Position numbers and translations under genes: made by a program
Part shown: in pieces, positions 2 to 53,533 of the stretch
Numbering within the stretch: position 1 is the stretch's first letter
Layout: every line of letters begins with the position of its first letter
Notes under the pieces: generated by a model
Databases searched by the model: none
Told to the model about the DNA's origin: nothing
Seen by the model: only the letters and a program-made list of their open reading frames with translations
Assembly: GCA_003712125.1 (NCBI GenBank)
Contig: RHLF01000004.1
Location: 6,332-70,331, forward strand
DNA length: 64,000 nucleotides
Origin: Allomuricauda sp.
Lineage (GTDB): Bacteria; Bacteroidota; Bacteroidia; Flavobacteriales; Flavobacteriaceae
Reading direction: 5' to 3'

Positions 2-832
2 GAAAAGGCCACACCCAAGGTCAACGAATACAACAATGGGTTTTACGGACCCTACAATAGGGCAACCGAAAAACAAAAATCTCAATACGAGCCAACACTT
101 GATGCCATTAACCAGTTTTTTGAAGAAAACTGGCCCACCATGAATGAAAGAGAAAAAATGCAATGGAAATACCAACGCTATATGCAAGACTATTTGGCCT
201 GCATCTCGTCTGTTGATGATAACGTGGGGCGTCTTTTGGATTATTTGGATGATTCCGGACTGGCCGAAAATACCATTGTAATATACACCTCGGATCAAGG
301 ATTTTTCCTGGGAGAGCACGGCTGGTTCGACAAGCGCTTCATTTATAACGAATCTTTTAAAACGCCTTTGTTGGCGCGTTGGCCGAACAAAATCAATGCG
401 GGAACTGTGGAGACCAAAATGGTACAAAATCTTGATTTTGCCCAAACCATGCTCGAAGCAGCACAAATCAAGGCTCCCGATCATATGCAAGGCGAAAGCC
501 TAATGCCGCTCTTACTGGGCGAAGGTGATGATTGGGACAGAGATGCCGTGTATTACCACTATTACGAGTATCCCTCTGTACATATGGTAAAAAGGCATTA
601 TGGTGTGGTTACCGAAGAATTCAAATTGGCACATTTTTATTATGATGTGGATGAATGGGAATTGTATGATCGGTTAAAAGACCCCAATGAACTTAAAAAT
701 GTGTACCATGACCCTGTTTATCAAGATACCGTCAAATCACTCAAAACCAAATTGGCAAATCTTAGAAGGCAATACAAAGATTCCGAAGCGCTAGACCAAA
801 AATTCATCGAACGCTACAAAGCAAAAAAGTGA
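2..832 (+). CDS. Sulfatase family protein, C-terminal part (5' truncated by the window edge)
   Basis: The frame is open from base 2 to TGA at 832. Sulfatase motifs YTSDQGFFLGEHG, DKRFIY and the NLDFAQT segment are present, with a DUF4976-like tail. Confidence 0.85.
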   Translation, partial: EKATPKVNEYNNGFYGPYNRATEKQKSQYEPTLDAINQFFEENWPTMNEREKMQWKYQRYMQDYLACISSVDDNVGRLLDYLDDSGLAENTIVIYTSDQGFFLGEHGWFDKRFIYNESFKTPLLARWPNKINAGTVETKMVQNLDFAQTMLEAAQIKAPDHMQGESLMPLLLGEGDDWDRDAVYYHYYEYPSVHMVKRHYGVVTEEFKLAHFYYDVDEWELYDRLKDPNELKNVYHDPVYQDTVKSLKTKLANLRRQYKDSEALDQKFIERYKAKK

Positions 833-843
833 CCCTTTGTTGA

Positions 844-2160
844 TCAGGTCTTCTGCTTCTTTTTGCGCGCGGCCGGAAAGAGTACATTGTTCAATATCAA
901 TCGATAGCCCGGTGAAGTGGGATGAAGCTCGAGTTCTGTTTTTGGATCGCCCACACGATGTTGGTAATCTTCGGGGTCGTGACCGCCATAAAACGTAAAA
1001 AATCCCTTCCCTTGAATGCCATGTAAGTAACGCGCCTCCCCATTTAGCTTACTTTCACCCAAGACCATTACTGTTGGTTTGACCTCACCTCGCACAAATG
1101 AGGTGGTTTGGCCCATAAACCCTTTTACCAAAGTGGTATGGTTCTGTGTCAACATGGTTGGTACCGGGTCCCATTTTGCCGAGAATTCCATCAAGGAAAA
1201 ATAGTCCGATTCTTTTGGGATTTTACGCTTTGCCGTCATGTCAATGGAGGAGAATTCATAGCGCAAGGGATTTCGTTCCAAGGTAAAGTTGGTAAACGCA
1301 AAGGTTCTGCTGAAGTCGAGTTTTCCCTGATAATTGGCTTCAGAGGGATCACCGTCAAACATGGGTTCACAAATATCAACTCCCTTGGCGGCCAAGGCGA
1401 TATCAAAACTATCGGTCGCTGAGCACATGGCGAACATAAAACCACCACCAATGACATAGCGTCGTATTTTTTCGGCCACAGCGCTTTTTTCATCCGAGAC
1501 CTTTTGAAAACCCAATTTTAAGGCCCGCTCTTCGGCCAAACGTTTTCCTTCAATGTACCACGGGGCAGCTCGAAAAGAACCGTAGAATTTCCCGAATTGT
1601 CCGGTAAAATCTTCGTGATGTAGATGCAACCAATCGTACAATGCCAGTTTATCATCCAATACTTCTTCATCATAGAGGGTTACATAGGGTATTTCAGCAT
1701 AGGTAAGCACCATGGTTACCGCATCATCCCAAGGTTGATTGTCCTTAGGGGAATAAACGGCAATTTTAGGAGCCTTTTCCAAAATAACCGCATCTTGATT
1801 TTGGGAAGGGCTACTTATCTCATCTAAAATGGCTTCCGCCTGTCCATCGGAAAGCACCTCAAAGGATACGCCTCTGATTTGACATTCTTTTCGAATGGTT
1901 TCGCCATCTGGCAACAGAAAAGATCCACCCCGATAATTAAGCAGCCATTGCACCTTTTGCTGCTTGGTCAAGACCCAATAGGTAATTCCATAGGCCTTAA
2001 GATGATTTTCCTGGCCTTCGGCATCCATTGGAATCAGCAATACTGAGGCTGAAGTATAGCAAGAAAATAGAATAAAAAAGAAAAATAGATTTCTGGCCTT
2101 AGCGCCAAATAAGCTTCCTTTAAAAAGGAATGTCGTTATCTTCTTCGGTATTTGCGTCAT
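844..2160 (-). CDS. Conserved Bacteroidota exported protein of unknown function (often loosely labelled asparagine synthetase B)
   Basis: 438-aa ORF with a hydrophobic signal-like segment before LLIPMD and the conserved-looking blocks YDWLHLHHEDFTGQ, FAMCSATD and GGHDPEDY. The start is uncertain because it overlaps the dnaB 3' end. Confidence 0.7.
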   Translation of the reverse strand: MTQIPKKITTFLFKGSLFGAKARNLFFFFILFSCYTSASVLLIPMDAEGQENHLKAYGITYWVLTKQQKVQWLLNYRGGSFLLPDGETIRKECQIRGVSFEVLSDGQAEAILDEISSPSQNQDAVILEKAPKIAVYSPKDNQPWDDAVTMVLTYAEIPYVTLYDEEVLDDKLALYDWLHLHHEDFTGQFGKFYGSFRAAPWYIEGKRLAEERALKLGFQKVSDEKSAVAEKIRRYVIGGGFMFAMCSATDSFDIALAAKGVDICEPMFDGDPSEANYQGKLDFSRTFAFTNFTLERNPLRYEFSSIDMTAKRKIPKESDYFSLMEFSAKWDPVPTMLTQNHTTLVKGFMGQTTSFVRGEVKPTVMVLGESKLNGEARYLHGIQGKGFFTFYGGHDPEDYQHRVGDPKTELELHPTSPGYRLILNNVLFPAARKKKQKT

Positions 2161-3670
2161 CGTTCATTGTGCTTCCAAAAGCTTCGTCGGCACTGGGTGG
2201 ATTTTGCGTGATAAAGGGATTTTCTTCATCCGCGTTCATTTTAGACTGAAACTCAAAAGGAGAATCAAAGTCATCTAAATTATCAAATTTACCCAAAGCC
2301 CCAATGAACTTTAACCTAACATTATCCAATCCTCCATTACGGTGCTTGGCCACAATAAACTCTGCCTGTCCCTGTGTGGGCGTGCGTTCTTCATCATCCC
2401 ATTCATCAATTTTATAATATTCAGGACGGTAAATAAAAGAAACAATGTCGGCATCTTGTTCAATGGCTCCTGATTCCCGCAGGTCAGATAGGATGGGTCG
2501 TTTGCTTCCTCCTCGGGTTTCAACCGCCCTAGATAACTGGGATAGGGCAATGACCGGCACATCAAGTTCTTTGGCCAAGGCCTTTAAATTCCTTGAAATG
2601 GTAGAGATTTCCTGTTCTCGATTCCCACCTTTTTGACTGGCTCCAGAAGTCATGAGCTGCAAATAGTCAACTATGATGAGTTTTATCTTGTGTTGCGAGG
2701 CCAATCGACGGGCCTTTGCACGTAAATCAAATATGGAGAGTGACGGAGTATCATCAATAAACAATGGTGCTTTTTCCAAAGCTTTCACCTTAACGTTCAA
2801 TTGTTCCCATTCGTGTTTCTCCAAACGACCCGTTCGCAATTTTTCTGATGAAAGCCCAGTCTCTGATGAAATCAAACGCGTAATCAATTGGACAGAGGAC
2901 ATTTCAAGTGAAAAGAAGGCCACCGGAACTTCTGAATTCACCGCAATATTGCGGGCCATAGATAAAACAAGCGCTGTTTTACCCATACCGGGCCTTGCTG
3001 CAATAATGATCAAATCACTTGGTTGCCATCCAGAGGTCAATTTATCAACCTTATCAAAACCTGATGGGATACCACTTAATCCCTCTTTATTGGCAATTTC
3101 CTCAATCTTCTTTTTTGCCTGAATAACCAAATTTTGGGCCGATTCTACAGAACGTTTTAAATTCCCCTGTGTTACTTCATATAACTTGGCTTCTGCATTG
3201 TCCAAGAGGTCAAAAACATCACTTGACTCATCGTAGGCATCTTCAATGATTTCATTTGAAATCTTGATTAGACTCCTTTGAATGTATTTTTGGAGGATAA
3301 TACGCGCATGAAACTCAATATGAGCGGATGAGGCCACTTTTTGGGTCAATTTTATCAAGTAAAAATCACCTCCTACGGCTTCGAGCTTACCATCTTTCTT
3401 TAATTGGGACGAAACAGTTAACAAATCAACCGGTTCCGAAGTTTCGAACAATTTAAAGATGGCTTCGTAAATAAATCGATGGGCGTCTTTATAGAATACA
3501 TCAGGGTGTAAAATATCGATCACCTCATCTACCCCCTTTTTATCAATCATCATCGCACCCAATACAACTTCCTCTAAATCAACGGCTTGCGGAGGTATTT
3601 TTCCGCGTTCAAGGTTGATGACCGTTGATTTATCGATTCGACGACCTAATATTGGGCTTGGTTTGTCCAT
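2120..3670 (-). CDS. dnaB: Replicative DNA helicase
   Basis: PPQAVDLEEVVLG N-terminus, Walker A AARPGMGKT, DYLQLM, LSQLSR and DLRESGAIEQDAD. Confidence 0.98.
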   Translation of the reverse strand: MDKPSPILGRRIDKSTVINLERGKIPPQAVDLEEVVLGAMMIDKKGVDEVIDILHPDVFYKDAHRFIYEAIFKLFETSEPVDLLTVSSQLKKDGKLEAVGGDFYLIKLTQKVASSAHIEFHARIILQKYIQRSLIKISNEIIEDAYDESSDVFDLLDNAEAKLYEVTQGNLKRSVESAQNLVIQAKKKIEEIANKEGLSGIPSGFDKVDKLTSGWQPSDLIIIAARPGMGKTALVLSMARNIAVNSEVPVAFFSLEMSSVQLITRLISSETGLSSEKLRTGRLEKHEWEQLNVKVKALEKAPLFIDDTPSLSIFDLRAKARRLASQHKIKLIIVDYLQLMTSGASQKGGNREQEISTISRNLKALAKELDVPVIALSQLSRAVETRGGSKRPILSDLRESGAIEQDADIVSFIYRPEYYKIDEWDDEERTPTQGQAEFIVAKHRNGGLDNVRLKFIGALGKFDNLDDFDSPFEFQSKMNADEENPFITQNPPSADEAFGSTMNDDANTEEDNDIPF

Positions 3671-5962: not shown

Positions 5963-7092
5963 TACAAGCGTTTGTTCATTTGGTTGACCATTTTGTTTTT
6001 CCAACTATAAAAGTCACCGGCCAAAATACGTTGACGGGCTTCCCGAACCAACCAAAGGTAAAACCCTAGGTTATGAATGGTTGCGATTTGTTTCCCCAAG
6101 TACTCATTGGCCGCAAACAGGTGTCTTAAATAGGCCTTTGAATATTCTTTGTCTACGAAGGTAATGCCCATTTCATCAACCGGAGAAAAATCATTTTCCC
6201 ATTTTTTGTTCTTGATATTGATCGTACCATGGGCCGTAAAAAGCATTCCGTTGCGCGCATTGCGTGTGGGCATAACACAATCAAACATATCGACACCCAA
6301 TGCGATATTTTCCAAAATGTTTATGGGTGTCCCCACGCCCATTAAATAGCGGGGTTTATCTTCTGGAAGTATATCGCAAACCACTTCGGCCATCCCGTAC
6401 ATTTCCTCAGCAGGTTCTCCCACCGAAAGTCCCCCAATGGCATTCCCTACCGCACCAACCGAGGCAATATATTCTGCAGATTGCTTGCGCAGGTCTTTAA
6501 AGGTCGATCCTTGTACAATGGGAAAGAAGGCCTGTTCGAAACCATACTTATAAGGGAGGTTTTCCAAATGCGTGATGCAACGATCCAACCAGCGATGGGT
6601 TAACTCCATTGAGCGTTTGGCGTAACCATATTCACAGGGATAAGGCGTGCACTCATCAAATGCCATAATGATATCGGCCCCAATAGTGCGCTGGATCTCC
6701 ATTACATTTTCTGGGGTGAAGAAGTGGCTCGAGCCATCAATATGCGACTTAAACTTTACCCCTTCTTCATTAATTTTTCTATTGCCAGAGAGCGAATACA
6801 CTTGATAGCCACCACTATCGGTCAAAATATTACCTTCCCAGCCCATAAACTTATGCAACCCGCCCGCTTGTTCGAGAATATCGATACCGGGCCGCAAAAA
6901 CAAATGGTAGGTATTCCCTAGGATGACATCAGGTTTGATCTCTTGACGCAATTCGCGTTGATGTACTCCCTTAACAGAGGCAACGGTGCCCACAGGCATA
7001 AAAATAGGGGTTTCGATTACCCCGTGGTCTGTTTCAAATTTTCCAGCCCTAGCCTTGCTATCAGTTTTTTCTAAGGAATATTTCAAGCCCAT
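5962..7092 (-). CDS. tgt: tRNA-guanine transglycosylase
   Basis: TPIFMPVGT, LGNTYHL, TDSGGYQ, DMFDCVMPTRNARNG and HNLGFY. Confidence 0.97.
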   Translation of the reverse strand: MGLKYSLEKTDSKARAGKFETDHGVIETPIFMPVGTVASVKGVHQRELRQEIKPDVILGNTYHLFLRPGIDILEQAGGLHKFMGWEGNILTDSGGYQVYSLSGNRKINEEGVKFKSHIDGSSHFFTPENVMEIQRTIGADIIMAFDECTPYPCEYGYAKRSMELTHRWLDRCITHLENLPYKYGFEQAFFPIVQGSTFKDLRKQSAEYIASVGAVGNAIGGLSVGEPAEEMYGMAEVVCDILPEDKPRYLMGVGTPINILENIALGVDMFDCVMPTRNARNGMLFTAHGTINIKNKKWENDFSPVDEMGITFVDKEYSKAYLRHLFAANEYLGKQIATIHNLGFYLWLVREARQRILAGDFYSWKNKMVNQMNKRL

Positions 7093-17571: not shown

Positions 17572-19842
17572 TTAGGCATTTTCTTTTTTGATCACGTTTA
17601 GAGCAGAACCCTCCTTGAACCAATTGATCTGTGCATCGTTATAACTATGGTTTGCAATAATCGTGTCTTGACTTCCATCAGAATGAACCACTTCAATGGT
17701 CAAAGGCTTGCCGGGTGAAAACTGGTCAATATCAATAAAATTGAAGGTGTCGTCCTCCTGAATTAAATCGTAATCGTTTTCATTGGCAAACGTAAGTCCC
17801 AACATACCCTGTTTTTTCAAATTCGTCTCGTGAATACGGGCAAACGATTTTACCAAAACAGCGGCAACACCTAAGTGTCGTGGCTGCATAGCCGCATGTT
17901 CCCTTGAAGAACCCTCACCGTAATTATGATCACCTACCACGAGCGTTCTAATGCCTTCAGCCTTGTATGCCCGTTGTGTATCGGGAACTCCGCCATATTC
18001 ACCCGTTAGCTGATTCTTGACAAAATTCGTTTTCTTGTTGAAGGCATTCACTGCGCCAATAAGGGTGTTGTTGGCAATATTGTCCAAATGTCCGCGATAG
18101 CGAAGCCAAGGTCCAGCCATCGAAATATGGTCTGTCGTACATTTTCCAAAGGCCTTTATCAATAATTTCATGCCTTGTAATGATGCAGGTGCAATGGGTT
18201 CGAAGGGAGCCAATAGTTGCAGTCTTTCTGAGGTAGGGGAAACAACCACTTCTACCCCACTACCATCTTCTTTTGGTGAAATATAACCCGCATCTTCGAC
18301 TGCAAAACCTTCAGGAGGCAATTCATAGCCTCGTGGCTCATCAAGCATCACTTCTTCCCCATCTTCATTAATCAACTTATCCGTTACGGGGTTAAAATCA
18401 AGTCTACCGGCAATGGCGATCGCAGTGACCAGTTCTGGAGAACCCACAAAAGCCAGTGTATTTGGATTACCATCTGCACGCTTGGCAAAATTTCGATTGA
18501 ATGAATGTACGATAGTGTTTCGCGGCCCATCTGCTGCTTTATCACCATAACGATCCCACATCCCTATACAAGGGCCACAGGCATTGGCAAAAACAGTGGC
18601 GCCAATATTGTTAAACGTATCTATAAAGCCATCTCGTTCAATGGTATAACGCACCTGTTCTGACCCAGGTGTAATGGTGAACTTTGATTTGGTTTTGAGG
18701 TTCTTATCTGCCACCTGTTTGGCCAAAGAGGCCGCTCTAGAAATATCTTCGTAAGACGAATTCGTACAGGAACCAATGAGACCTACCTCAACATTCAAAG
18801 GCCAATCATTTTTCCTTGCCGCTTCGCTCATTGTTGAAATGGGCGTCGCCAAATCGGGAGTAAAGGGCCCGTTTAAGTGAGGCTCCAAGGTCGTAAGATC
18901 AATCTCGATCACCTGATCGAAATAGGTCTCGGGATTATTGTATACCTCAGGGTCTGCGGTTAGATGTTCCTTCACCTCATTGGCCGCATCGGCAACATCT
19001 GCTCTATCCGTACCGCGAAGGTAACGGTCCATCGAATCGTCGTAACCGAAAGTAGATGTTGTGGCGCCTACCTCGGCACCCATATTACAAATGGTACCCT
19101 TTCCTGTGCATGACATGGCAAGTGCTCCTTCGCCAAAATATTCAATAATGGCTCCTGTTCCCCCTTTAACCGTAAGGATATCAGCAACCTTCAAGATAAC
19201 GTCTTTTGGCGCTGTCCATCCTGAAAGTTTACCGGTAAGTTTAACACCGATCAATTTCGGAAATTTCAATTCCCAAGGCATCCCTGCCATCACATCAACC
19301 GCGTCTGCACCACCAACCCCAATGGCTACCATACCCAATCCACCGGCATTTACTGTATGCGAATCGGTTCCAATCATCATTCCTCCAGGGAAGGCATAAT
19401 TCTCGAGAACAACCTGATGAATAATTCCAGCTCCTGGTTTCCAGAAACCAATACCATATTTGTTGGAAACAGACTCTAAGAAATCAAATACCTCATTACT
19501 CGTTTCGTTGGCGCGCTTCAAGTCCTTTTCCGCACCAACCTTGGCCTGTATCAAGTGATCACAGTGCACTGTAGTTGGCACTGCCACCTTAGGCTTTCCG
19601 GCATGCATGAACTGCAACAGGGCCATTTGAGCTGTGGCATCCTGACAGGCCACGCGATCCGGAGCAAAATCAACATAATCTTTACCTCTATTGTATACTT
19701 GGGTAGGGTTTCCTTCCCACAAATGGGAATACAATATTTTTTCAGCTAAAGTAAGTGGTCTTCCTACCAATTCGCGGGCTTTGTTGACCCGTTCTCCCAT
19801 GGTAGCGTAGACAGCTTTAATCATGTCGATATCAAATGCCAT
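17572..19842 (-). CDS. acnA: Aconitate hydratase (mitochondrial-type)
   Basis: [29 protein letters not shown] and [12 protein letters not shown]. Confidence 0.96.
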
Positions 19843-19936
19843 TATATACTTGGGTTTATAAGATTTTCAATTTCACAAAATTAAGAAATTGGGAAGGATT
19901 TTCTGGAATGACAGCGACCCTATTTCGGCGAACTGC

Positions 19937-20890
19937 CTAAAGTAAATTCGAGATGATGTCCTCTTCGGAAATCCCTTCAGCCTCTGCCTTGTAATTTTTT
20001 AAGATCCGATGTCTGAGAATACCCATGGCCACAGCCTTTACGTCTTCAGCATCTGGAGAAAACTTACCGTGCACGGCAGCATGGGCTTTGGCTCCTAAAA
20101 CCAAGTTTTGCGATGCCCTGGGACCCGCCCCCCAATCCACATAATTTTTTATTAAATCAGATGATGATGCCAAATTCGGTCTGGTTTTATTGACCAAGCG
20201 CACCGTATAATCAACCACATTGTCAGGCACGGGTATCCGACGTATCAAATGTTGAACATCAACCAGTGCATCGGCACTAAAGATGGTGTTAAGTATGGTT
20301 GAGTGATCGGAAGTTGTGTTTTTAACAATGTTGATCTCTTCTTCAATAGAAGGGTAATCCAATTTAATGGCGAACATAAAACGGTCTAATTGCGCTTCGG
20401 GCAAAGGATAGGTACCTTCTTGCTCAATTGGGTTTTGCGTGGCCAAAACGAAATAGGGCAATTCAAGTTTGTGCTGTTTACCGGAAATGGTCACCGAGCG
20501 CTCTTGCATTGCTTCCAAAAGAGCCGCCTGGGTTTTAGGTGGTGTTCTGTTTATCTCATCGGCCAAAACGATATTGGCAAATACCGGGCCTTTGATGAAT
20601 TTGAAATTACGTTCCTGATCCAAAACTTCGCTGCCCAAGATATCGCTGGGCATGAGGTCAGGGGTAAATTGTATCCGCTTAAAATCTAACCCCAAGGTTT
20701 GGGCAATGGTATTTACCATGAGGGTCTTTGCCAAACCCGGAACTCCAATCAATAAGGAATGTCCCCCGGTGTAAATGGATAGCAATATTTGATCAATGAC
20801 TGCCTCTTGACCGACTATAACTTTGGCAATCTCTTTTTTAAGGGCTTGATGTTTTTCAACGAGATTGTTGACAGCTTCTACATCAGACAT
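19937..20890 (-). CDS. MoxR-family AAA+ ATPase
   Basis: [40 protein letters not shown] and [22 protein letters not shown]. Confidence 0.95.
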
Positions 20891-26383: not shown

Positions 26384-26935
26384 ATGGACGATTCCCAAAT
26401 AGTACATCGCGTTTTGCAAAAAGACCCCACCGCACTCTATTTGCTTTATGACAAATATTCCGGGGCGTTGTTGGGTGTAATCTTAAGGATGTGCCGAAAT
26501 CGATTTCAAGCAGAGGACCTACTACAAGAAACCTTTGTCAAGATTTGGGAGAATATTGGAAGTTATGACAGTACCAAAGGCAGGTTTTATACTTGGGCCT
26601 ATCGAATTGCGAAAAATACCACGTTAAATGCGTTACGAAAACCAGACTTGCTCATCCAAACCGATGAATTAAGTGTACATAATAATAAAGCGCAATCAGA
26701 ACCGGAACAAGATTTTGCCGAATTGAACGGGGCCTTGCAAAAATTGGAGCCCCATCACCAAGAGGCAATTTCGTTGGTATACTTTAGGGGTTACACCCAT
26801 AGGGAAGCCTATAAGGAAATGGGTGTTCCATTAGGAACATTCAAATCATATGTAAGGCAGGCATTGAGTCTCCTTCGAGAAAATTACAGCGAACAACTGG
26901 TCATACTTTGGTTTACCATAGAACTATTGGCGTGA
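26384..26935 (+). CDS. ECF sigma factor (SigK-like)
   Basis: AEDLLQETFVKIW, FYTWAYRIAKN and PLGTFKSYVR. Confidence 0.9.
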   Translation: MDDSQIVHRVLQKDPTALYLLYDKYSGALLGVILRMCRNRFQAEDLLQETFVKIWENIGSYDSTKGRFYTWAYRIAKNTTLNALRKPDLLIQTDELSVHNNKAQSEPEQDFAELNGALQKLEPHHQEAISLVYFRGYTHREAYKEMGVPLGTFKSYVRQALSLLRENYSEQLVILWFTIELLA

Positions 26936-27687
26936 TGAAAAAGAATAAGATTTTAGAGGACGGTCTTTTAGAAAAATATTTATTGGACGAACTTTCAGAT
27001 AACGAAAGGTTGTTGGTCGAAGATGCCATACATAAAGACAGTGACCTAAGAGCTGAATTTGATGTACTCGAGGCAAATTTCGAAAAAATGGCCTTCGAAA
27101 ATGCGATAGCACCAAATGCCCACGTAAAGGGAGAACTTCAAAAAAGAATAGGATCTCCAGGACCAACAGAGCGTAATCGATGGCCTCTAATGGCAGCTGC
27201 CAGTTTGGCCTTGTTGTTTCTGTTGACCACTTTTTGGATGTTCAACAAATGGCAGGCAGCCAACGACCAACTTAACCTTATTGAATCGCAAACACTTAGT
27301 TTACAAGAGCGTTTAGGGGTGTTGGAAGAAAACTATGAGCTGACCAATAACAGGTTACAGCTCATCAATAGCCCAAATACCATTCCCCTTATTCTAAGAG
27401 GCAATGAAAAAGTGCCCAATTCACGCGCTGTGGCCTATGTCAACCATCAAAATAAATTGGTTGTGGTAAATCCTCAAGGGCTGCCCAATCTTCCTGACAA
27501 TCAAACGTATCAAATGTGGAGTGATGTGGATGGAGAAATGATTGATATGGGACTTTTGCCAAACGACAAGGAACTGGTAACCTTAAAGTATATAGATCGT
27601 GCCGAATCACTAAATATTACCATCGAACCTGCGGGGGGCAATGACCATCCCACTGTCGAACGACTAATTTCCTATGTGACTTTATGA
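26935..27687 (+). CDS. Anti-sigma factor (RskA-like)
   Basis: Y-L-L-D-E-L N-terminus, single TM, coiled coil, YQMW and LNITIEPAGG; overlaps the sigma stop. Confidence 0.85.
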   Translation: MKKNKILEDGLLEKYLLDELSDNERLLVEDAIHKDSDLRAEFDVLEANFEKMAFENAIAPNAHVKGELQKRIGSPGPTERNRWPLMAAASLALLFLLTTFWMFNKWQAANDQLNLIESQTLSLQERLGVLEENYELTNNRLQLINSPNTIPLILRGNEKVPNSRAVAYVNHQNKLVVVNPQGLPNLPDNQTYQMWSDVDGEMIDMGLLPNDKELVTLKYIDRAESLNITIEPAGGNDHPTVERLISYVTL

Positions 27688-41984: not shown

Positions 41985-42010
41985 TGTAACTATTTGCCAT
42001 ATTTGCCGTC
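41985..42010 (+). promoter_or_regulatory. ECF-sigma promoter 1 (TGTAAC-N16-CGTC)
   Basis: TGTAAC 41985-90, 16-nt spacer, CGTC 42007-10. The same motif occurs at the ECF sigma gene at 52.4 kb. Confidence 0.7.
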
Positions 42011-42015
42011 TTTAA

Positions 42016-42126
42016 AATGAAAATACTATCATTGGTAAGACTGTATTTTTATAGTTAATGGTTAGTGTTTAGTATAGCTTATCAATGAATAACCCTGGTA
42101 GCCTTTGCTACCAGGGTTTCTTTTTT
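42016..42126 (+). ncRNA. Candidate small RNA unit 1 (may contain a 13-codon sORF)
   Basis: Bounded by ECF promoter 1 and a perfect 12-bp hairpin AACCCTGGTAGC/GCTACCAGGGTT plus TCTTTTTT. There is no + strand gene upstream for this hairpin to terminate. TGGTTAGT core at 42059-66. Confidence 0.6.
42091..42126 (+). terminator. Intrinsic terminator of unit 1
   Basis: 12-bp stem, CTTT loop, U-tract on the + strand. Confidence 0.85.
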
Positions 42127-42180: not shown

Positions 42181-42206
42181 TGTAACATCTATCCATAATT
42201 AACGTC
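42181..42206 (+). promoter_or_regulatory. ECF-sigma promoter 2 (TGTAAC-N16-CGTC)
   Basis: TGTAAC 42181-86, 16-nt spacer, CGTC 42203-06. Confidence 0.7.
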
Positions 42207-42211
42207 TTGTG

Positions 42212-42331
42212 ATTAAAAGTAAGCGACCAAAATCGCTAGAAAAGATATTGGTTTGCCTTGTGGAATATTGGTTGGTTAGTTCCTGCAAGCAAATCAATAA
42301 GCCCCTAATGTTTCATTGGGGGTTTCTTTTT
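42212..42331 (+). ncRNA. Candidate small RNA unit 2
   Basis: ECF promoter 2, 5' hairpin AGCGA-CCAAAA-TCGCT, TTGGTTGGTTAGT core (42268-80), and terminator AAGCCCCTAATG/CATTGGGGGTTT plus CTTTTT. Confidence 0.55.
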
Positions 42332-43337
42332 ACCATCTAATAATGACACTCCCCCATGTGAAACCACTTCCAAAGGCAGCCAGAACAATCAAATCGCCTT
42401 CCTTAACCTTGCCTTGCTCCCAGGCCTCAGTCAACGCAATGGGTATTGATGCAGCGGTGGTATTGCCGTATTTCATGATATTATTGAATACCTGGTCATT
42501 CGATAGCCCGAACTTTTTTTGTACGAACTGAGAAATTCTAAGATTCGCCTGGTGCGGTACAAGAAGATCGATATCGGTTGCCGTAAGGTTGTTTTTTTGC
42601 AATCCTTCCATGATAACTTCACTAAATCGAACGACGGCATTTTTGAATACAAATTGGCCGTTCATATAAGGGAAATAGGACTCATCTTCAGGGTCATTTT
42701 CTTCAATAATATCCGTTACCCATCGTTTCCCCATCCCCGGGGCAATAAGTGACAATTCTTCTGCATGTTGACCTTCAGAATGCAAATGACTTGATAAGAT
42801 TCCTTTCTTTGGGTCCTCTTCCCTGCTAATTATTGCTGCACCAGCTCCATCACCGAAGATGACAGAGACTCCCCGACCTCTTGTGGTCATATCCAATCCA
42901 TGCGAATGAAGCTCAGAACCCACAACCAAAACATTTTTGTACATGCCACTTTTAACGTACTGATCGGCCACAGAGATGCCATATACAAATCCGGAACATT
43001 GATTTCTGACATCAAGGGCACCAACGGTTTTGATACCTAAATCGCGCTGAACCAATACACCAGGGCCTGGAAAATAGTAATCAGGACTCAAGGTGGCGAA
43101 GATGATAAAATCAACCTCGTCTTTATCAATGCCTGCGCGTTCGATTGCAATTTTTGCCGCCTTTACACCCATCGAGGTCGTAGTTTCTTCACCCCTTACC
43201 ACATGCCGGCGCTCTTTAATTCCCGTTCGCTCCTGAATCCACGCATCACTGGTTTCCATGACCTTCGACAAATCGTCATTGGTCACAACATTATCCGGAA
43301 CATAATACCCCAATCCCGTTATCTTAGAATTGTACAT
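42330..43337 (-). CDS. fabH: 3-oxoacyl-ACP synthase III family protein
   Basis: Catalytic Cys in DVRNQCSGF, FGDGAGA, PHQAN and GNTTAAS. Start placed at MYNSK. Confidence 0.9.
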   Translation of the reverse strand: MYNSKITGLGYYVPDNVVTNDDLSKVMETSDAWIQERTGIKERRHVVRGEETTTSMGVKAAKIAIERAGIDKDEVDFIIFATLSPDYYFPGPGVLVQRDLGIKTVGALDVRNQCSGFVYGISVADQYVKSGMYKNVLVVGSELHSHGLDMTTRGRGVSVIFGDGAGAAIISREEDPKKGILSSHLHSEGQHAEELSLIAPGMGKRWVTDIIEENDPEDESYFPYMNGQFVFKNAVVRFSEVIMEGLQKNNLTATDIDLLVPHQANLRISQFVQKKFGLSNDQVFNNIMKYGNTTAASIPIALTEAWEQGKVKEGDLIVLAAFGSGFTWGSVIIRW

Positions 43338-48266: not shown

Positions 48267-48299
48267 ATGAATTACTATCTTGGACTAAATCAACACACC

Positions 48300-49646
48300 A
48301 TGAGCAGCGATTACACCAGTTCAGATTTTAAAAAATTATTGGATAAGCTCCAGACCGAGAGTTGGCAATTGGAACTAATTATCTCGGGATTCGCCATTTA
48401 TGGTCTTTTCTCTGCTATAGAACCTTTGGAAGTAGAGCTGTTGACCTCGGTCAAAAACAACCAGACCATTTACAATGCTATGTTACAAGCGCTTAAAAGC
48501 GGGACTTTCATTTTGATGGGTTCCCTTCTGATTCATGTGATCCTTAGGGGGTTATGGATCGGCACCTTGGGACTACGGTACATTTCGGGGGATATTGACT
48601 ATGATGAACTGCGATATGCCCCAAAATTCAACAAATTCCTCAAAACGAGGGTGGGTTCTTTCGACCGTTATATCTCTAGACTTGAAAACGCCTGTAGTAC
48701 GGTATTTGCCTTGGCATTTTTAATGGTCTTCTATTTCTTATCCTATTTTCTGATATTGATGTTTTTTGCAATCGTTGCCTTTGCCATCAACAATATCGGA
48801 TTGTTTTCAAGTGAAACCGCGGGTATGGTTACCGCCATATTCGGCATTGTATATTTCGTATTGATCTTGATATTCCTTTTTGATTTTTTGACCATGGGTG
48901 GGCTCAAAAGGGATCGCTGGACGGCCAAATACTATTATCCCTTGTACCGGTTTTTTGGCATCATCACCCTAGCATTTATGTACCGCCCTTTGGTCTATAA
49001 TTTTCTTGATCAAAAGAAAGCGCGTTGGGTGGCCACCTTTATTTTACCAATTTATACAGTGGGTCTTGTGTTCCTTCAGATCTATGGCGTGGTTAATTCA
49101 AACTATCAAATTGAAGGACAGGGTACCTCAAGCTATTTTACCAGTAAGTACAACTACGAAGATCAGCTTACCGAAAAAACCGATTTTGTTCAGTTTGTCT
49201 CCTTACCGTCAAAGGTTATCGACAAACCCTATATGCGCGTTTATGTAGGCTTCAATAAGTTTCTTGAAGATGCCGTTTTGGCAAAAGATTCCACGTTAAT
49301 GCCTGAAAAAGACCGAAGGGGCTATTCTTTTAAAATAAACAGACGGTTCAATTTTAGTGGGTTGAGTTTTAATTTTTCCAATAGATATCTTCAGATCCAG
49401 AAAGACCAATCGCACTACCTCGATGTCTTGGGTGAATTGTACCAATTGAAAATTGATAGTGTTTTTTATGATAAAGATTTTGTCATGACCAACGATACCA
49501 ACAAACGTCTTGGTTTTGAAACCTACCTCGATATTAAAGGGTTGGAGAACGGCAAACACCTTTTGTACTTAATTGGGCCTGATCCACGGATTGAAAAAGA
49601 GCTCGATACGCTAATAACCATTCCCTTCTGGTACTTTGAAGACTAA
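48300..49646 (+). CDS. Multi-pass membrane protein of unknown function (paralogue A)
   Basis: About 6 TMs plus a C-terminal soluble domain; SWQLELIISGFAI and HVILRGLWIG. Start moved to MSSDY because ATG 48267 abuts the htpG terminator. Confidence 0.8.
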   Translation: MSSDYTSSDFKKLLDKLQTESWQLELIISGFAIYGLFSAIEPLEVELLTSVKNNQTIYNAMLQALKSGTFILMGSLLIHVILRGLWIGTLGLRYISGDIDYDELRYAPKFNKFLKTRVGSFDRYISRLENACSTVFALAFLMVFYFLSYFLILMFFAIVAFAINNIGLFSSETAGMVTAIFGIVYFVLILIFLFDFLTMGGLKRDRWTAKYYYPLYRFFGIITLAFMYRPLVYNFLDQKKARWVATFILPIYTVGLVFLQIYGVVNSNYQIEGQGTSSYFTSKYNYEDQLTEKTDFVQFVSLPSKVIDKPYMRVYVGFNKFLEDAVLAKDSTLMPEKDRRGYSFKINRRFNFSGLSFNFSNRYLQIQKDQSHYLDVLGELYQLKIDSVFYDKDFVMTNDTNKRLGFETYLDIKGLENGKHLLYLIGPDPRIEKELDTLITIPFWYFED

Positions 49647-49678: not shown

Positions 49679-51022
49679 ATGAGCAACGACTACAAAAGCC
49701 CCGGTTTTAAAAAGTTATTGGATTCCTTGCAACAGCAAAGCTGGGAGTTGGAACTTATTATTTCGGGTTTCGCAATTTTCGGACTATTTACGGCTTACGA
49801 GCCGTTACAGATTGAGGTACAAAACGCCCAAAACGACGGTCAAATTTATGCCTTTGTGCTGTACCTTGTGGCCTATATCGCCTGTAGTATCCTTTTGTTC
49901 AATTTATTGCTTCATGTGGTATTAAGAGGGCTTTGGATTGGTGCACTGGGCCTGCGATATATCTCTGGGGATATTGAGTTTGACAAGCTCAAATACAGTG
50001 ATAAGTTCAAAAACTACCTGCAAAAAAAGATAGTTTCCTTTGATCGCTATATCGCCAATTTGGAAAACTATTGCAGTGTATTATTCGCCATTTCCTTCTT
50101 GTTGATATTTCATGTTCTGGCACTGACACTTATCATTTTAAGTATTGCCCTGGTTGCCAATCTTGTTATTGAAAATGACGATTTACCCGATTGGGTTTCC
50201 AATTGGATTGGAATTCCGTTGGTCATTTTTATCAGTGTCGGAATGCTGCTAACTTTTCTTGATTTCATCACCCAAGGGTTATTAAAACGCAATAAATGGG
50301 TCAGTAGAGTTTACTTCCCTTTTTATTGGGCTTTCAGCTTTTTAACGCTATCCTTTTTATATCGACCCTTGGTTTATAATTTTTTGGACAACAGGTTTGG
50401 CAAGCGCATCATTTTCTTTTTGACCCCGATTTACATCATCATATTAATACTGAGTGGACTGTACTATCGCAACTCGAATTACCTGGTAAAGGACCGAAAC
50501 TCGTCGACCATTTTCGCCAATAGGGAAAATTATAGGGATATGATGACAGAAGACGCAGATTACCCCGGGGAAGCTGTCATTCCATCCAAGGTAATTACCA
50601 CCAAATTTCTACACGTATTTATGCCCTATTCCGAAAATATCGAAGAACGCATTTTTGATTATGAGAAAACGCTAAAACCGGAAGATGATCGGCGAGGGCT
50701 AGCATCCAGCAATTTTAATTTTAATACCAATTGGGGCGATAAGATTACCAACTCAAGACAAAAAGATAGTGTGCGAAAAAAATACCTGGAGGTTTTTAAT
50801 GAAACGTATTTTTTTAAGGTCGACACCCTCGTATTGGATAGCGATTTTATAATTGCCACTGATGCTGAGAACAGACTTGGGTTTGAGACGTATTTGAACC
50901 TTAGGGAAGTCGAAGAAGGCAAACACCAACTACGCGTGATGAGAAAGCGACGGCAAAAAGACTCCATTGTCGAGGTCATTCAAGAATCTATACCCTTTTG
51001 GCATTTCAAGCAGACACCTTAA
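49679..51022 (+). CDS. Multi-pass membrane protein of unknown function (paralogue B)
   Basis: Colinear paralogue of the upstream gene: SWELELIISGFAI, HVVLRGLWIG, YRPLVYNF and IPFW. Confidence 0.8.
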   Translation: MSNDYKSPGFKKLLDSLQQQSWELELIISGFAIFGLFTAYEPLQIEVQNAQNDGQIYAFVLYLVAYIACSILLFNLLLHVVLRGLWIGALGLRYISGDIEFDKLKYSDKFKNYLQKKIVSFDRYIANLENYCSVLFAISFLLIFHVLALTLIILSIALVANLVIENDDLPDWVSNWIGIPLVIFISVGMLLTFLDFITQGLLKRNKWVSRVYFPFYWAFSFLTLSFLYRPLVYNFLDNRFGKRIIFFLTPIYIIILILSGLYYRNSNYLVKDRNSSTIFANRENYRDMMTEDADYPGEAVIPSKVITTKFLHVFMPYSENIEERIFDYEKTLKPEDDRRGLASSNFNFNTNWGDKITNSRQKDSVRKKYLEVFNETYFFKVDTLVLDSDFIIATDAENRLGFETYLNLREVEEGKHQLRVMRKRRQKDSIVEVIQESIPFWHFKQTP

Positions 51023-51381
51023 TGATTTATCCTTGGCATCTCTATCTCATGGCAGGCATGTACGTTGTTGCAGGTGTTATGCATTTTATATATCCCAAAG
51101 CCTACAAACGCATTATGCCAAAATACCTTCCCAAACATGGCCTTCTTGTATTTTGGAGTGGTATTGCTGAAATTATTTTAGGGGTTGCCCTTTGTTATTC
51201 CCAAACCAAAAACATAGCCATATGCGGCATCATAACCATGTTGGCTGTCTTTTTGATGGTGCATTTTTATATGCTTTCTAGTGAAAAAGCTGCTGCTGGT
51301 GTTCCGAAATGGATCTTAATTTTAAGAATTCCATTACAGTTTGGCCTTATGTATTGGGCATATTGGTATTTGAAATTTTAA
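51022..51381 (+). CDS. DoxX/MauE-like small membrane protein
   Basis: AGVMHF..P..Y..IMP, SGIAEI..G and RIPLQ. Confidence 0.75.
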   Translation: MIYPWHLYLMAGMYVVAGVMHFIYPKAYKRIMPKYLPKHGLLVFWSGIAEIILGVALCYSQTKNIAICGIITMLAVFLMVHFYMLSSEKAAAGVPKWILILRIPLQFGLMYWAYWYLKF

Positions 51382-51782
51382 GCCAATCGTTTATCAAAAT
51401 ACCCTTTTAGCAGCGTGGTTTGCACCATTACCAAAAGACCCATGGTTCCAATGGTATACACGAGAATTCTAGAAAAGGGCAATTCAAATTTAGGCATGGT
51501 AAGTTCTGATATCCACTTTGATGAGAGGGTCTGGCTAAACCAATTGCTTGATGCGCTATCCAATTGAAAAGTCAAAAAGATCAATAAAACAACAAACAGA
51601 ACTCCCATAACGCCCAAAACATTTCTTGAAATAATTGGCTTATAGGCGAATTTCACCTGTTCTTCTGAAGCCTTGATCTGGTTCATCACCACATCGGTAA
51701 AATCGGCAGATGGTGCATCTAATTGAGCATCATGAAACGCGATGTCGAGTAACTCCCTTAACTCTTTGTCTGTCTTATCCAT
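51378..51782 (-). CDS. Probable membrane anti-sigma factor
   Basis: Overlaps the sigma stop; PSADFTDVVM helix, YKPII and two TM segments. Confidence 0.7.
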   Translation of the reverse strand: MDKTDKELRELLDIAFHDAQLDAPSADFTDVVMNQIKASEEQVKFAYKPIISRNVLGVMGVLFVVLLIFLTFQLDSASSNWFSQTLSSKWISELTMPKFELPFSRILVYTIGTMGLLVMVQTTLLKGYFDKRLA

Positions 51783-52353
51783 AATTTCTAAGTACTTCAG
51801 GTTCAATATGGTTTTCTAAAATTAGTGCAAATTTCTTTCGCGCCCGGTGCAATCGTACCTTTAAGGTGTTCACCGATTGTTCAAAAATCTCCTCTAACTC
51901 ATTTAAATTCTTCTCTTCAAAATAGAACAAGGTGAGCAAAGCGGCGTCTTCAGGCGGCAAATACTGCAAACAGGCCTTTACCTTTGCTGAGCGCTCCTTT
52001 TGTTCCATTTCATGCAACGCATTTTTGGTGGTATATATCTTGTTTTCCGTTACCGCATTTAGTTCTTCCTCCAGATACTTTCTTTTATACTTTTTTAGTC
52101 GATCCAAACAGGTGTTATAGGCAATTCTATAAATCCATGTAGAAAATTTAGAATCCCCTTTAAAACTTTCCAACGAACTGTAAACCTTAACGAACGTATC
52201 TTGCGCTACTTCTTCGGCTTCTTCCTGATTTTTCAACATCTGTAAGGCCAAAGAGAACACCAAATTTTTATACGCATCTACCACTTCGGAAAACGCCGCA
52301 GTTTCTCCATTCAAAATGCGATTGATCAGTGTTGTTTCTGTGTTGGTTGCCAT
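51775..52353 (-). CDS. ECF sigma factor (RpoE/SigW-like)
   Basis: AEEVAQDTFVK, FKGDSKFSTWIYRIAYN and KVRLHRARKK. Start placed at MATNT because the track start (52377) lies inside the promoter. Confidence 0.92.
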   Translation of the reverse strand: MATNTETTLINRILNGETAAFSEVVDAYKNLVFSLALQMLKNQEEAEEVAQDTFVKVYSSLESFKGDSKFSTWIYRIAYNTCLDRLKKYKRKYLEEELNAVTENKIYTTKNALHEMEQKERSAKVKACLQYLPPEDAALLTLFYFEEKNLNELEEIFEQSVNTLKVRLHRARKKFALILENHIEPEVLRNYG

Positions 52354-52364
52354 TTGATTAATAA

Positions 52365-52391
52365 GACGATAAATCATGATCTTAGGTTACA
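52365..52391 (-). promoter_or_regulatory. ECF autoregulatory promoter (TGTAAC-N17-CGTC)
   Basis: Minus strand TGTAAC 52391-86, 17-nt spacer, CGTC 52368-65, 12 nt before the sigma ATG. Confidence 0.75.
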
Positions 52392-52415
52392 GGAATCAAT
52401 TTTTTTTTGATTTGT

Positions 52416-52442
52416 TGTAACCTGGATTCAAAAATGGTCGTC
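52416..52442 (+). promoter_or_regulatory. ECF promoter of the divergent DUF6249-like gene (TGTAAC-N17-CGTC)
   Basis: TGTAAC 52416-21, 17-nt spacer, CGTC 52439-42. Confidence 0.75.
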
Positions 52443-52485
52443 ATAAGAGACAAACAAAGTTAATAATCAAGTAAAACGAACAATT

Positions 52486-52836
52486 ATGGGATCAGAAGTA
52501 ATTATTATACCAATCATTTTTGGGGTACTTTTCGCCATCGCCTACCTATACTTTTCAACGCGTAACAAGGAAAGGTTGGCTTTAATCGAAAAAGGTGCCG
52601 ATGCCAGTATTTTTGTTAAGGGAAGACGCAGGGCCGCACCAATCTGGAAAATTTTATTGTTAAATCTAGCCCTCTTGCTAGCAGCTACCGGTATCGCAAT
52701 TTTCGTGGGCTCATTCCTGACTACTATGGGCGTCGATGAAGATGTGGCCTACCCCGGCACTATTTTCTTACTGGCAGGTGTCGGACTATTTGTCGGCTAC
52801 ATCATGACCAAAAGGTTGGACAAAGAGGAAGACTAA
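52486..52836 (+). CDS. DUF6249-like small membrane protein
   Basis: RNKERLALIEKGAD after TM1, followed by two further TMs. Confidence 0.8.
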   Translation: MGSEVIIIPIIFGVLFAIAYLYFSTRNKERLALIEKGADASIFVKGRRRAAPIWKILLLNLALLLAATGIAIFVGSFLTTMGVDEDVAYPGTIFLLAGVGLFVGYIMTKRLDKEED

Positions 52837-52859
52837 GCCTTTTAATTACAATCAAACTA

Positions 52860-52896
52860 AAAATCCGTCAAGCGTATTGACGGATTTTTTATTTTT
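52860..52896 (+). terminator. Intrinsic terminator
   Basis: AAAATCCGTCAA-GCGTA-TTGACGGATTTT followed by a T-rich tail. Confidence 0.85.
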
Positions 52897-52900
52897 AGGT

Positions 52901-53533
52901 ATGGAAATTATTTCAACCAATATAGCAAAGCCTACCAAAGTTTCATGGCGCGGGCGAGACATTACCACGGGTATTTATAAAAAACCGGTTCAAGAGGCCA
53001 TTTTTTTGGGGAAAGAAGATGTGCGCAACGATGCCGTAATCGACCGCAAACACCATGGAGGAGAATTTAAGGCCTGCTATCTTTTTGGTTCCGACTATTA
53101 CCCCGATTGGAAAATTAAATTCCCCCATCTAAATTGGGAATGGGGAATGTTCGGTGAAAATCTTACGATTGAGGGACTCGATGAGGCAACATTGCACATT
53201 GGAGCCAGTTATAAGCTGGGGAATTCCACAGTGCAAATAACGGAACCTCGGCAACCCTGCTATAAACTTGGGATACGCTTTGGCACACAACTAGTCATCA
53301 AAGAATTTATCAATTATGGCCATCCCGGGACTTACGTGAAAATTCTCGAGGAAGGAGAGGTTAAAAAAGGGGATCATCTCACCCCTATCGCATCAGACAA
53401 CAATGCCATTACGATAAAACAATACAATGAATTGGTAAATTCAAAGCACAAAGATCCTGAACTCATAAAATTGGCCATAGCCAATGAGGGCATTCGAAAG
53501 GAAAAAAGAGAGAAGCTTGAAAAACTGCTCTAA
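52901..53533 (+). CDS. MOSC-domain protein (YiiM-like)
   Basis: TGIYKKP, HHGG, FGENLT, PRQPCYKLG and PGTYVKILEEG. Confidence 0.9.
   Translation: MEIISTNIAKPTKVSWRGRDITTGIYKKPVQEAIFLGKEDVRNDAVIDRKHHGGEFKACYLFGSDYYPDWKIKFPHLNWEWGMFGENLTIEGLDEATLHIGASYKLGNSTVQITEPRQPCYKLGIRFGTQLVIKEFINYGHPGTYVKILEEGEVKKGDHLTPIASDNNAITIKQYNELVNSKHKDPELIKLAIANEGIRKEKREKLEKLL

Follow-up and report, generated by a model that had tools for sequence, protein, structure and literature searches.

Two back-to-back ECF-type promoters conserved between an ECF sigma factor operon and a divergent DUF6249 gene in Allomuricauda and other Bacteroidota

Promoters of the AAC...CGT type are read by extracytoplasmic function (ECF) sigma factors such as SigW, SigX, and SigM of Bacillus subtilis. 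In Escherichia coli, the envelope stress ECF sigma factor sigma-E autoregulates its own gene and also drives the small RNAs (sRNAs) MicA, RybB, and MicL. The genomes of Bacteroidetes encode on average about 22 ECF sigma factors. Among them, BT1817 (SigW-1) of Bacteroides thetaiotaomicron, which is accompanied by the transmembrane (TM) protein BT1816, belongs to group ECF251 together with PG1660 of Porphyromonas gingivalis, and published work links the two sigma factors to oxidative stress or sulfatases. Genes of the Pfam family DUF6249 lie close by: PG1662 (DUF6249) is part of the PG1662-PG1667 efflux cluster, two genes away from that of the ECF sigma factor PG1660, and in Bacteroides, DUF5056, DUF6249, and a sigma factor are found together near clsB. 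The papers returned by our DUF6249 literature search did not link the PG1660 and BT1817 sigma factors to DUF6249 or to a GTAACC...CGTC motif, and no tie between DUF6249 and an ECF promoter was present in the papers found; the motif and its gene context may already be recorded in the ECF Hub. In Flavobacterium psychrophilum, promoters of the SM6 class have been mapped that also drive sRNAs, including Rfp11 (5′ end, UGAGUUAGUUAAG) (PMC9723704). Here, we describe a locus within a 64-kb stretch of the Allomuricauda sp. genome (contig RHLF01000004.1; this whole stretch is termed the window herein), at which an ECF sigma factor operon and a divergent DUF6249 gene appear to be transcribed from two back-to-back promoters of the AAC...CGT type.

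The sigma factor of this locus is a protein of 192 amino acids (aa) that contains regions 2 and 4 only (Pfam Sigma70_r2 and r4_2), which is the architecture of ECF (group 4) sigma factors, and it scored 98.7 bits against the ECF superfamily model TIGR02937 (cutoff, 42.9). Its best NCBIfam likeness is SigW, and its scores stayed below the cutoffs of both SigW equivalog models (134.4 versus 209 bits for NF007223 and 119.4 versus 243 bits for TIGR02948). The 132-bp region between the sigma gene and the DUF6249 gene contains two copies of TGTAAC-N17-CGTC in back-to-back orientation (52391..52365 on the minus strand and 52416..52442 on the plus strand; Table 1), with 24 nucleotides (nt) between the two −35 hexamers (52392-52415). 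An initial annotation of the window had reported this opposed pair, and we found it at the same coordinates. The two copies are the only exact matches in the window, where 100 dinucleotide-preserving shuffles gave a mean of 0.04 matches and none contained two, so that chance is excluded as an explanation for the pair. Other matches to the relaxed pattern GTAAC-N15-18-CGT in the window that were checked, at 3152 and 27577, fall within coding regions. A scan of the spacer for the housekeeping −7 box TAnnTTTG found none on the plus strand, which is that of DUF6249, and one match on the minus strand.

An ortholog scan with one genome per species yielded 80 loci encoding relatives of the sigma factor (42 to 64% identity). 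Most are from Flavobacteriaceae (Flagellimonas/Allomuricauda, Croceitalea, Croceivirga, Algibacter, Lacinutrix, Flavobacterium, and others), and three are from metagenome-assembled genomes (MAGs), one each from Bacteroidales, Chitinophagaceae, and Bacteroidia. Promoter counts cover 78 of the 80 loci, the other two being contigs without upstream DNA. In every one of these 78 loci, the sigma gene is accompanied by a divergent DUF6249 gene, and NGTAAC-N(16/17)-[C/A]GTC is present on each strand of the intergenic region; the Bacteroidales, Bacteroidia, and Chitinophagaceae loci carry the same divergent module and motif. The spacing is 17 nt in 154 of the 156 promoters, the N16-spaced exceptions being two DUF6249 promoters (L040 and L070), and a C directly follows GTAAC in all but one of the 156. 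The resulting consensus was tGTAACC-N16-CGTC-nTA (with that C written as part of the −35 box), with about 2 bits in the GTAACC and CGTC columns and about 0 bits in the spacer. The motif TGTAAC-N17-CGTC is thus present as it had been described, but its conserved −35 core is GTAACC and not TGTAAC alone.

A position weight matrix (PWM) built from the orthologs only, with the window excluded, gave 34.9 and 30.4 bits for the two window sites (training range, 17.8 to 42.5 bits), and the next-best N17 site among 128,000 window positions reached −1.3 bits. In ∼520 kb of ortholog loci, only two N17 sites were detected outside the sigma/DUF6249 intergenic region, one of them L073's own sigma promoter at a contig end and the other a weak 17.3-bit site in L075. 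Likewise, the sigma and DUF6249 promoters were the only N17 sites above 8 bits in ∼82 kb of sequence from close relatives.

The two −35 boxes form an inverted repeat, GGTTACA...TGTAACC, with about three helical turns between its halves in most loci, which might suggest the operator of a dimeric transcription factor. The distances between the boxes speak for a different arrangement. They are 21 to 34 nt in 70 loci, and in 8 loci (L007, L017, L039, L041, L045, L065, L069, and L077), 68 to 1,931 nt have been inserted between the boxes; each −35 box in these 8 loci nevertheless retains its own CGTC and the distance to its own gene. Since the promoters stay with their genes despite the insertions, they are two separate promoters and not one palindromic operator. 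The N17-CGTC partner and the distance to the start codon are kept over the whole range of 21 to 1,931 nt, the CGTC boxes are as strongly conserved as the repeat, and the motif stands beside the sigma gene in all 78 loci. We therefore regard an operator, or a pair of promoters read only by a nonadjacent sigma factor, as highly improbable. The insertions between the divergent promoters disturb neither of them, and some contain hairpin-rich, repeat-like sequence.

Between the end of the −10 element and the in-frame ATG of the sigma gene there are 9 to 14 nt in 74 of 78 loci and 11 nt in the window; for the DUF6249 ATG, this distance is 41 to 50 nt in most loci. At the mapped ECF-type (SM6) promoters of F. 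psychrophilum, the transcription start site (TSS) is located 10 nt after the T of CGT (PMC9723704, supplementary Table S2). According to this rule, the TSS of the sigma mRNA would be at ∼52356, giving a leader of ∼3 nt (1 to 5 nt in the orthologs), and that of the DUF6249 mRNA at ∼52451, giving a 5′ untranslated region (UTR) of ∼35 nt. A sigma TSS at the predicted position rules out the ATG at 52377, which lies upstream of it, as the start codon of the sigma gene. The very short leader that had been suggested for the sigma mRNA agrees with the conserved distance between −10 element and ATG, and its proposed length of ∼6 nt is replaced by the predicted ∼3 nt; by analogy with F. psychrophilum, the sigma mRNA would be nearly leaderless across the family, a mildly unusual trait. 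In the DUF6249 leader (52451-52485 and the orthologous 5′ UTRs), we observed a conserved block, TTAATCAATTAAAAACGAACAATT-ATG, which is strongest at AAAAC (positions −13 to −9). It may serve in regulation or reflect the A-rich sequence around start codons that typifies Bacteroidetes. In many species, but not in the window, a tiny upstream open reading frame (ORF) or an additional ATG occurs ∼7 to 10 nt downstream of the DUF6249 −10 element.

Both motifs behave as independent, conserved ECF-type promoters, which would define the consensus for this sigma factor and place DUF6249 in its regulon. The initial annotation had made the same proposal, that the motifs drive the sigma operon and the divergent DUF6249 gene, and the conservation of both promoters argues for it. 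We put a probability of roughly 85% on the interpretation that two independent ECF-type promoters lie back to back in the intergenic region and are read by the adjacent ECF sigma factor, with positive autoregulation and with DUF6249 as the one conserved target. The presence, conservation, and geometry of the motif, the gene content, and the synteny are direct observations in the compared genomes; the binding of the motif by this sigma factor rather than by a paralogue and the TSS positions are predictions. ECF sigma factors typically autoregulate, which is the basis of published target promoter predictions, and conserved neighboring targets are likewise the norm (PMC7826278); the mapped ECF-type promoters of F. 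psychrophilum share the AAC/CGT architecture (PMC9723704). The arrangement follows this standard ECF logic, and phylogenetic footprinting strongly supports the core of the interpretation, an autoregulated ECF sigma factor that would define its own consensus, with DUF6249 as its conserved target; the motif accompanies the sigma gene throughout the orthologs.

In this model, the adjacent ECF sigma factor would read both intergenic promoters. From the first, it would transcribe the nearly leaderless bicistronic mRNA for itself and the putative anti-sigma factor, the two genes being translationally coupled by their 8-nt overlap; driving its own operon would amount to positive autoregulation, with the coexpressed two-TM anti-sigma factor as a brake. 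The second promoter would yield a monocistronic DUF6249 mRNA with a leader of ∼35 nt and its own terminator, so that the three-TM protein would be the one conserved output. An envelope or membrane signal might release the sigma factor.

Several observations weigh against this interpretation or limit it. Metatranscriptome contigs cover part of the sigma gene at a depth of 3 to 4 and include promoter DNA, so that no TSS could be placed with them, and an RNA sequencing (RNA-seq) search found no run from this organism. Cross-recognition by a paralogous sigma factor might also occur, because other flavobacterial ECF sigma factors read similar AAC-N16-CGT motifs. For the 134-aa protein encoded downstream of the sigma gene, no likeness to a known anti-sigma domain was detected, and its structural model is of low confidence. 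In favor of the interpretation, a possible link between the sigma factor and its −10 element comes from a clade of four loci (L052, L063, L067, and L076), in which both promoters have AGTC instead of CGTC and the sigma factor carries the substitution K65N in the region 2 loop FKGDSKFSTW; independently, L080 has an N at the same sigma residue together with AGTC at its own promoter. This covariation is suggestive and no more, because it comprises only two evolutionary events.

An ORF like the one downstream of the sigma gene was found in 76 of the 80 loci and encodes 120 to 139 aa (130 to 139 aa in all but L080); it overlaps the sigma stop codon in nearly all of them. From this position and the translational coupling, we infer that the 134-aa protein acts as an anti-sigma factor. 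In the homologue alignment, the N-terminal motif LExPSxDFTxxVMxxI..YKPLISK and a C-terminal tail, LKxYF, are conserved and a loop of ∼35 aa is variable; two hydrophobic helices are also present. The AlphaFold2 (AF2) model, computed from 5 sequences, has a pLDDT of 54, a low confidence that makes it good for helix counting only, and places helices at residues 2-17, 27-42, 53-87, and 103-133; it predicts two short cytoplasmic helices ahead of two TM helices. With its tiny outer loop, the protein has almost no extracytoplasmic domain. Neither the protein nor 31 homologues matched Pfam, nor did the protein itself match NCBIfam; a profile search of the PDB gave no significant match (best hit, RsiW; E = 1.6), and the zinc-binding motif HxxxCxxC or a cysteine pair is absent from the protein and from the 31 aligned homologues. 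Such a minimal anti-sigma factor without a recognizable domain would be a mildly unusual trait.

The divergent gene had been described as DUF6249-like with three TM segments. Its product indeed scored 59.1 bits against PF19762 (gathering cutoff, 33; profile positions 4 to 104 of 104), and the AF2 model (pLDDT, 78) contains three helices (residues 3-38, 53-80, and 85-114). A Foldseek search of this model against the PDB gave no match with an E value of <1, and among 3,330 homologues, all named ones are annotated only as DUF6249. Directly after TM1 follows a nearly invariant block, YLxxSTRN[KR]ER[LM]ALIEKGxDAxIF, which is predicted to lie on the cytoplasmic side and is rich in positive charges. 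DUF6249 is the most conserved of the three proteins, with a mean identity to the window protein of 65% versus 52% for the sigma factor, and the two closest genomes show 94% and 90% identity for DUF6249 versus 63% and 71% for the anti-sigma factor. A target protein that is better conserved than its regulators is a mildly unusual trait.

This conservation raises the question whether DUF6249 is more than an output, namely, a third signaling component that acts as a feedback regulator or accessory to the anti-sigma factor, as YhdK does for YhdL in the sigma-M system of B. subtilis. Besides the conservation, the cytoplasmic motif STRN[KR]ER[LM]ALIEKG suggests a specific partner, the anti-sigma factor has almost no extracytoplasmic domain, and the pairing of DUF6249 with the sigma factor persists across the phylum. 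A dedicated effector would be just as likely to show strict linkage and high conservation, however; no fold match points to a function, and both an interaction with the sigma or anti-sigma factor and the role of co-sensor or accessory anti-sigma factor raised in the initial annotation are speculation. We therefore consider such a role rather unlikely. The promoter assignment would give DUF6249, a Pfam family so far without a function, a firm regulatory address as the conserved and possibly only target of one ECF sigma factor across the Bacteroidota.

The initial annotation had also linked the sigma factor to two sRNA units near 42 kb of the window. These lie in tandem between a gene for a CoA-binding protein and fabH, each with a TGTAAC-N16-CGTCTT promoter directly before a short terminated transcript, a layout like that of MicA and RybB. 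The fold z-scores of the two units were −6.5 (unit 1) and −4.9, and the stretch UGGUUAG(U) is common to both units and located in a hairpin loop. Rfam contains no family for the units or their relatives, at either gathering or relaxed thresholds. The arrangement recurs in four other species (L084/L085, L086, L088, and L090), and in all five, both sRNA promoters retain GTAAC, the 16-nt spacing, and CGTCT while their spacers diverge; the five species do not differ in the 59-nt core of unit 1. Short marine metatranscriptome contigs contain this core (depth, 3 to 4, with promoter DNA included and no TSS). The units are thus probably real sRNAs with ECF-type promoters. The pairs are located at 860-1240 in L084, 1290-1700 in L086, 17503-17595 and 20083-20325 in L088, and 17608-17984 in L090, all on the minus strand. 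The unit 2 promoter of L088 (MAG GCA_020357715.1) is separated from the unit 2 seed and terminator by a gene for a TonB-dependent receptor (17596-20082) on the same strand as the sRNA, so that the sRNA there would derive from the 3′ UTR of a receptor mRNA transcribed from an ECF-type promoter. Among four metagenome matches, L087 turned out to be a chance match within a gene, and a look-up with the CoA-binding protein yielded no contigs of 1 kb or more. A literature search with the sRNA seed string returned nothing relevant. RNAduplex predictions of the sRNAs against 78 start regions gave no evidence that the sigma or DUF6249 mRNA is a target; the duplexes were implausibly long, and the sigma start ranked 50th to 55th and the DUF6249 start 73rd to 78th.

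Two readings of the sRNA promoters have to be weighed. The sigma factor at 52 kb might itself read the N16 promoters and thereby include the sRNAs in its regulon, as sigma-E does with MicA, RybB, and MicL. The −35 and −10 letters are identical, the sRNA promoters are the top two N16 matches of the PWM in the window (the next scored 0.1 bits), their boxes are kept in five species while the spacers drift, and the N16-spaced DUF6249 promoters of L040 and L070 suggest that this sigma factor may tolerate a 16-nt spacing. On the other hand, none of the ten sRNA promoters has a C after GTAAC (A, T, or G stands there instead), compared with 155 of 156 sigma and DUF6249 promoters that do, the spacing is 16 nt and not 17 nt, and with 13.3 and 5.1 bits in the ortholog matrix, the two sRNA promoters fall short of the 17.8 bits of the weakest true site. 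The N16 form also fits the separate SM6 class of F. psychrophilum, with its sRNAs Rfp11, Rfp31, and Rfp74. Moreover, the same seed (TTGGTTGGTTAGTTAG) occurs, together with a terminator, in sRNA-like units of six loci from Algibacter, Flaviramulus, and Flavivirga; these units are located ∼2.2 kb upstream of the sigma gene behind a sigma-54-like promoter, TGGCA-N6-TTGC (TTGGCAyrAggATTGc), while the sigma/DUF6249 module there is unchanged; the sRNA family thus seems to be wired to different alternative sigma factors in different lineages. On these grounds, the link made in the initial annotation is not upheld by spacing, by the base after GTAAC, or by score, and we hold a common regulon to be possible at somewhat below even odds.

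Alternatively, the sRNA promoters are real ECF-type promoters that are read by a different, SM6-type N16 ECF sigma factor encoded elsewhere in the genome. Both the N16 spacing and the missing C after GTAAC are consistent with this, as are the mapped SM6 promoters (GTAAC/ACAAC-N16-CGT), and with ∼22 ECF sigma factors per Bacteroidetes genome, another sigma factor is at least as likely a reader of these promoters. The spacing differs by just 1 nt, however, and no candidate was found: the second ECF sigma gene of the window (26384-26935), which we considered, has no GTAAC...CGTC upstream. We give this alternative an even chance. Two ECF promoter classes that look alike, one with N17 and a C after GTAAC and the other with N16 and no such C, are found side by side in a single genome, which calls for caution in assigning regulons by eye.

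A more far-reaching model, which we consider unlikely in its entirety, would combine these elements into a phylum-wide three-part ECF module of sigma factor, minimal two-TM anti-sigma factor, and inducible DUF6249, in which the STRNKERLALIEKG helix contacts the anti-sigma or sigma factor for tuning or sensing and in which the same circuit or a sister ECF sigma factor drives the tandem GGUUAG-seed sRNAs here. With 20 or more ECF sigma factors per Bacteroidota genome and few known promoters among them, the consensus obtained for the two promoters of the sigma/DUF6249 region would lend itself to regulon scans of Flavobacteriaceae, Bacteroides, and Porphyromonas.

The promoters are embedded in a block of five genes, in which a MOSC-domain gene (52901-53533, plus strand) follows the DUF6249 gene and its terminator, DUF6249 and the sigma gene diverge, the anti-sigma gene follows the sigma gene, and a gene for a MauE/DoxX-like membrane protein (50998-51381, plus strand) converges on the anti-sigma gene, their ends overlapping by 4 nt. 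The MOSC gene is common to 61 of the 80 loci and the MauE-like gene to 47. Just upstream of the MauE-like gene, two tandem paralogues (48267-49646 and 49679-51022, plus strand) encode multipass membrane proteins of ∼450 aa with very similar N termini (..DYxSxxFKKLLDxLQxxSWxLELIISGFAI.GLF..). The region at 26384-27687 (plus strand) encodes the second ECF sigma factor (183 aa; 28% identical to the first) and, in an overlapping gene, an anti-sigma-like protein of 259 aa with a single membrane pass; a fasciclin-like gene lies divergently to them. In L024, an Algibacter MAG, Rfam detected a group II intron domain (65.5 bits) close to the sigma locus, at 6015-6090 on the minus strand.

Table 1. Coordinates of the features discussed in the text. 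Positions refer to the window unless a locus is named.
Feature	Position	Strand	Remarks
ECF sigma gene, 192 aa	51775..52353	−	Pfam Sigma70_r2, 6e-20; r4_2, 5.5e-10; start MATNT set by ortholog alignment
Putative anti-sigma gene, 134 aa	51378..51782	−	Start overlaps sigma stop by 8 nt; role from position
−10 element, sigma operon promoter (CGTC)	52365..52368	−	17 nt from GTAAC; ends 11 nt before ATG at 52353
−35 element, sigma operon promoter (TGTAACC)	52385..52391	−	Exact motif; GTAACC at this position in 78/78 orthologous loci
−35 element, DUF6249 promoter (TGTAACC)	52416..52422	+	Exact motif; conserved in orthologs
−10 element, DUF6249 promoter (CGTC, then ATA)	52439..52442	+	Exact motif; conserved in orthologs
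DUF6249 gene, 116 aa, three TM helices	52486..52836	+	PF19762; motif STRNKERLALIEKG after TM1
Intrinsic terminator of the monocistronic DUF6249 unit	52859..52897	+	13-bp stem, then T run
sRNA unit 1	41985..42126	+	TGTAAC-N16-CGTC; transcript ∼107 nt (∼42019-42125); terminator 42091-42118 plus T run
sRNA unit 2	42181..42332	+	TGTAAC-N16-CGTC; transcript ∼118 nt (∼42215-42332); seed-like UUGGUUGGUUAG in loop; terminator 42299-42325
sRNA-like units behind a sigma-54-like promoter	L024 ∼700-850, L027 ∼720-880, L038 ∼80-240, L042 ∼1310-1470, L054 ∼700-860, L062 ∼690-850	+	

Compared with known systems, the locus resembles E. coli sigma-E in concept only, as a probably autoregulating ECF sigma factor in a genome with sRNAs that end in intrinsic terminators; it differs in that the dependence of the sRNAs on this sigma factor is doubtful and that no homology to RseA or RseB is present. 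The SM6 class of F. psychrophilum shares the flavobacterial AAC −35 and CGT −10 boxes, a sigma/anti-sigma operon as a target, and short or absent leaders. Its 16-nt spacing and looser −35 box are unlike those of the sigma and DUF6249 promoters described here, and SM6 fits the sRNA promoters of the window better. The SM6 candidate sigma factor THC0290_1774 (170 aa) differs in size and neighbors from the window sigma factor, and an F. psychrophilum orthologue of the latter was not identified among the candidates THC0290_1868, which has an 80-nt leader, and THC0290_1774. With group ECF251, the locus shares an ECF sigma gene followed by a gene for a small membrane protein and a DUF6249 gene in the vicinity, near PG1660-61 and near the Bacteroides sigma gene, a likeness by gene neighborhood alone. 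The SigW-RsiW system of B. subtilis differs in several respects: the window sigma factor scores below the SigW equivalog cutoffs (134 versus 209 bits) and its regulon appears to be very small, and the putative anti-sigma factor, with two TM helices and a tiny outer loop, has neither the HxxxCxxC motif nor a detectable anti-sigma domain. Like SigW-RsiW, however, the locus combines a two-domain ECF sigma factor and its own AAC-N16/17-CGT-type promoter with a probably cotranscribed membrane protein, here the putative anti-sigma factor, and with a small membrane protein as a probable target.

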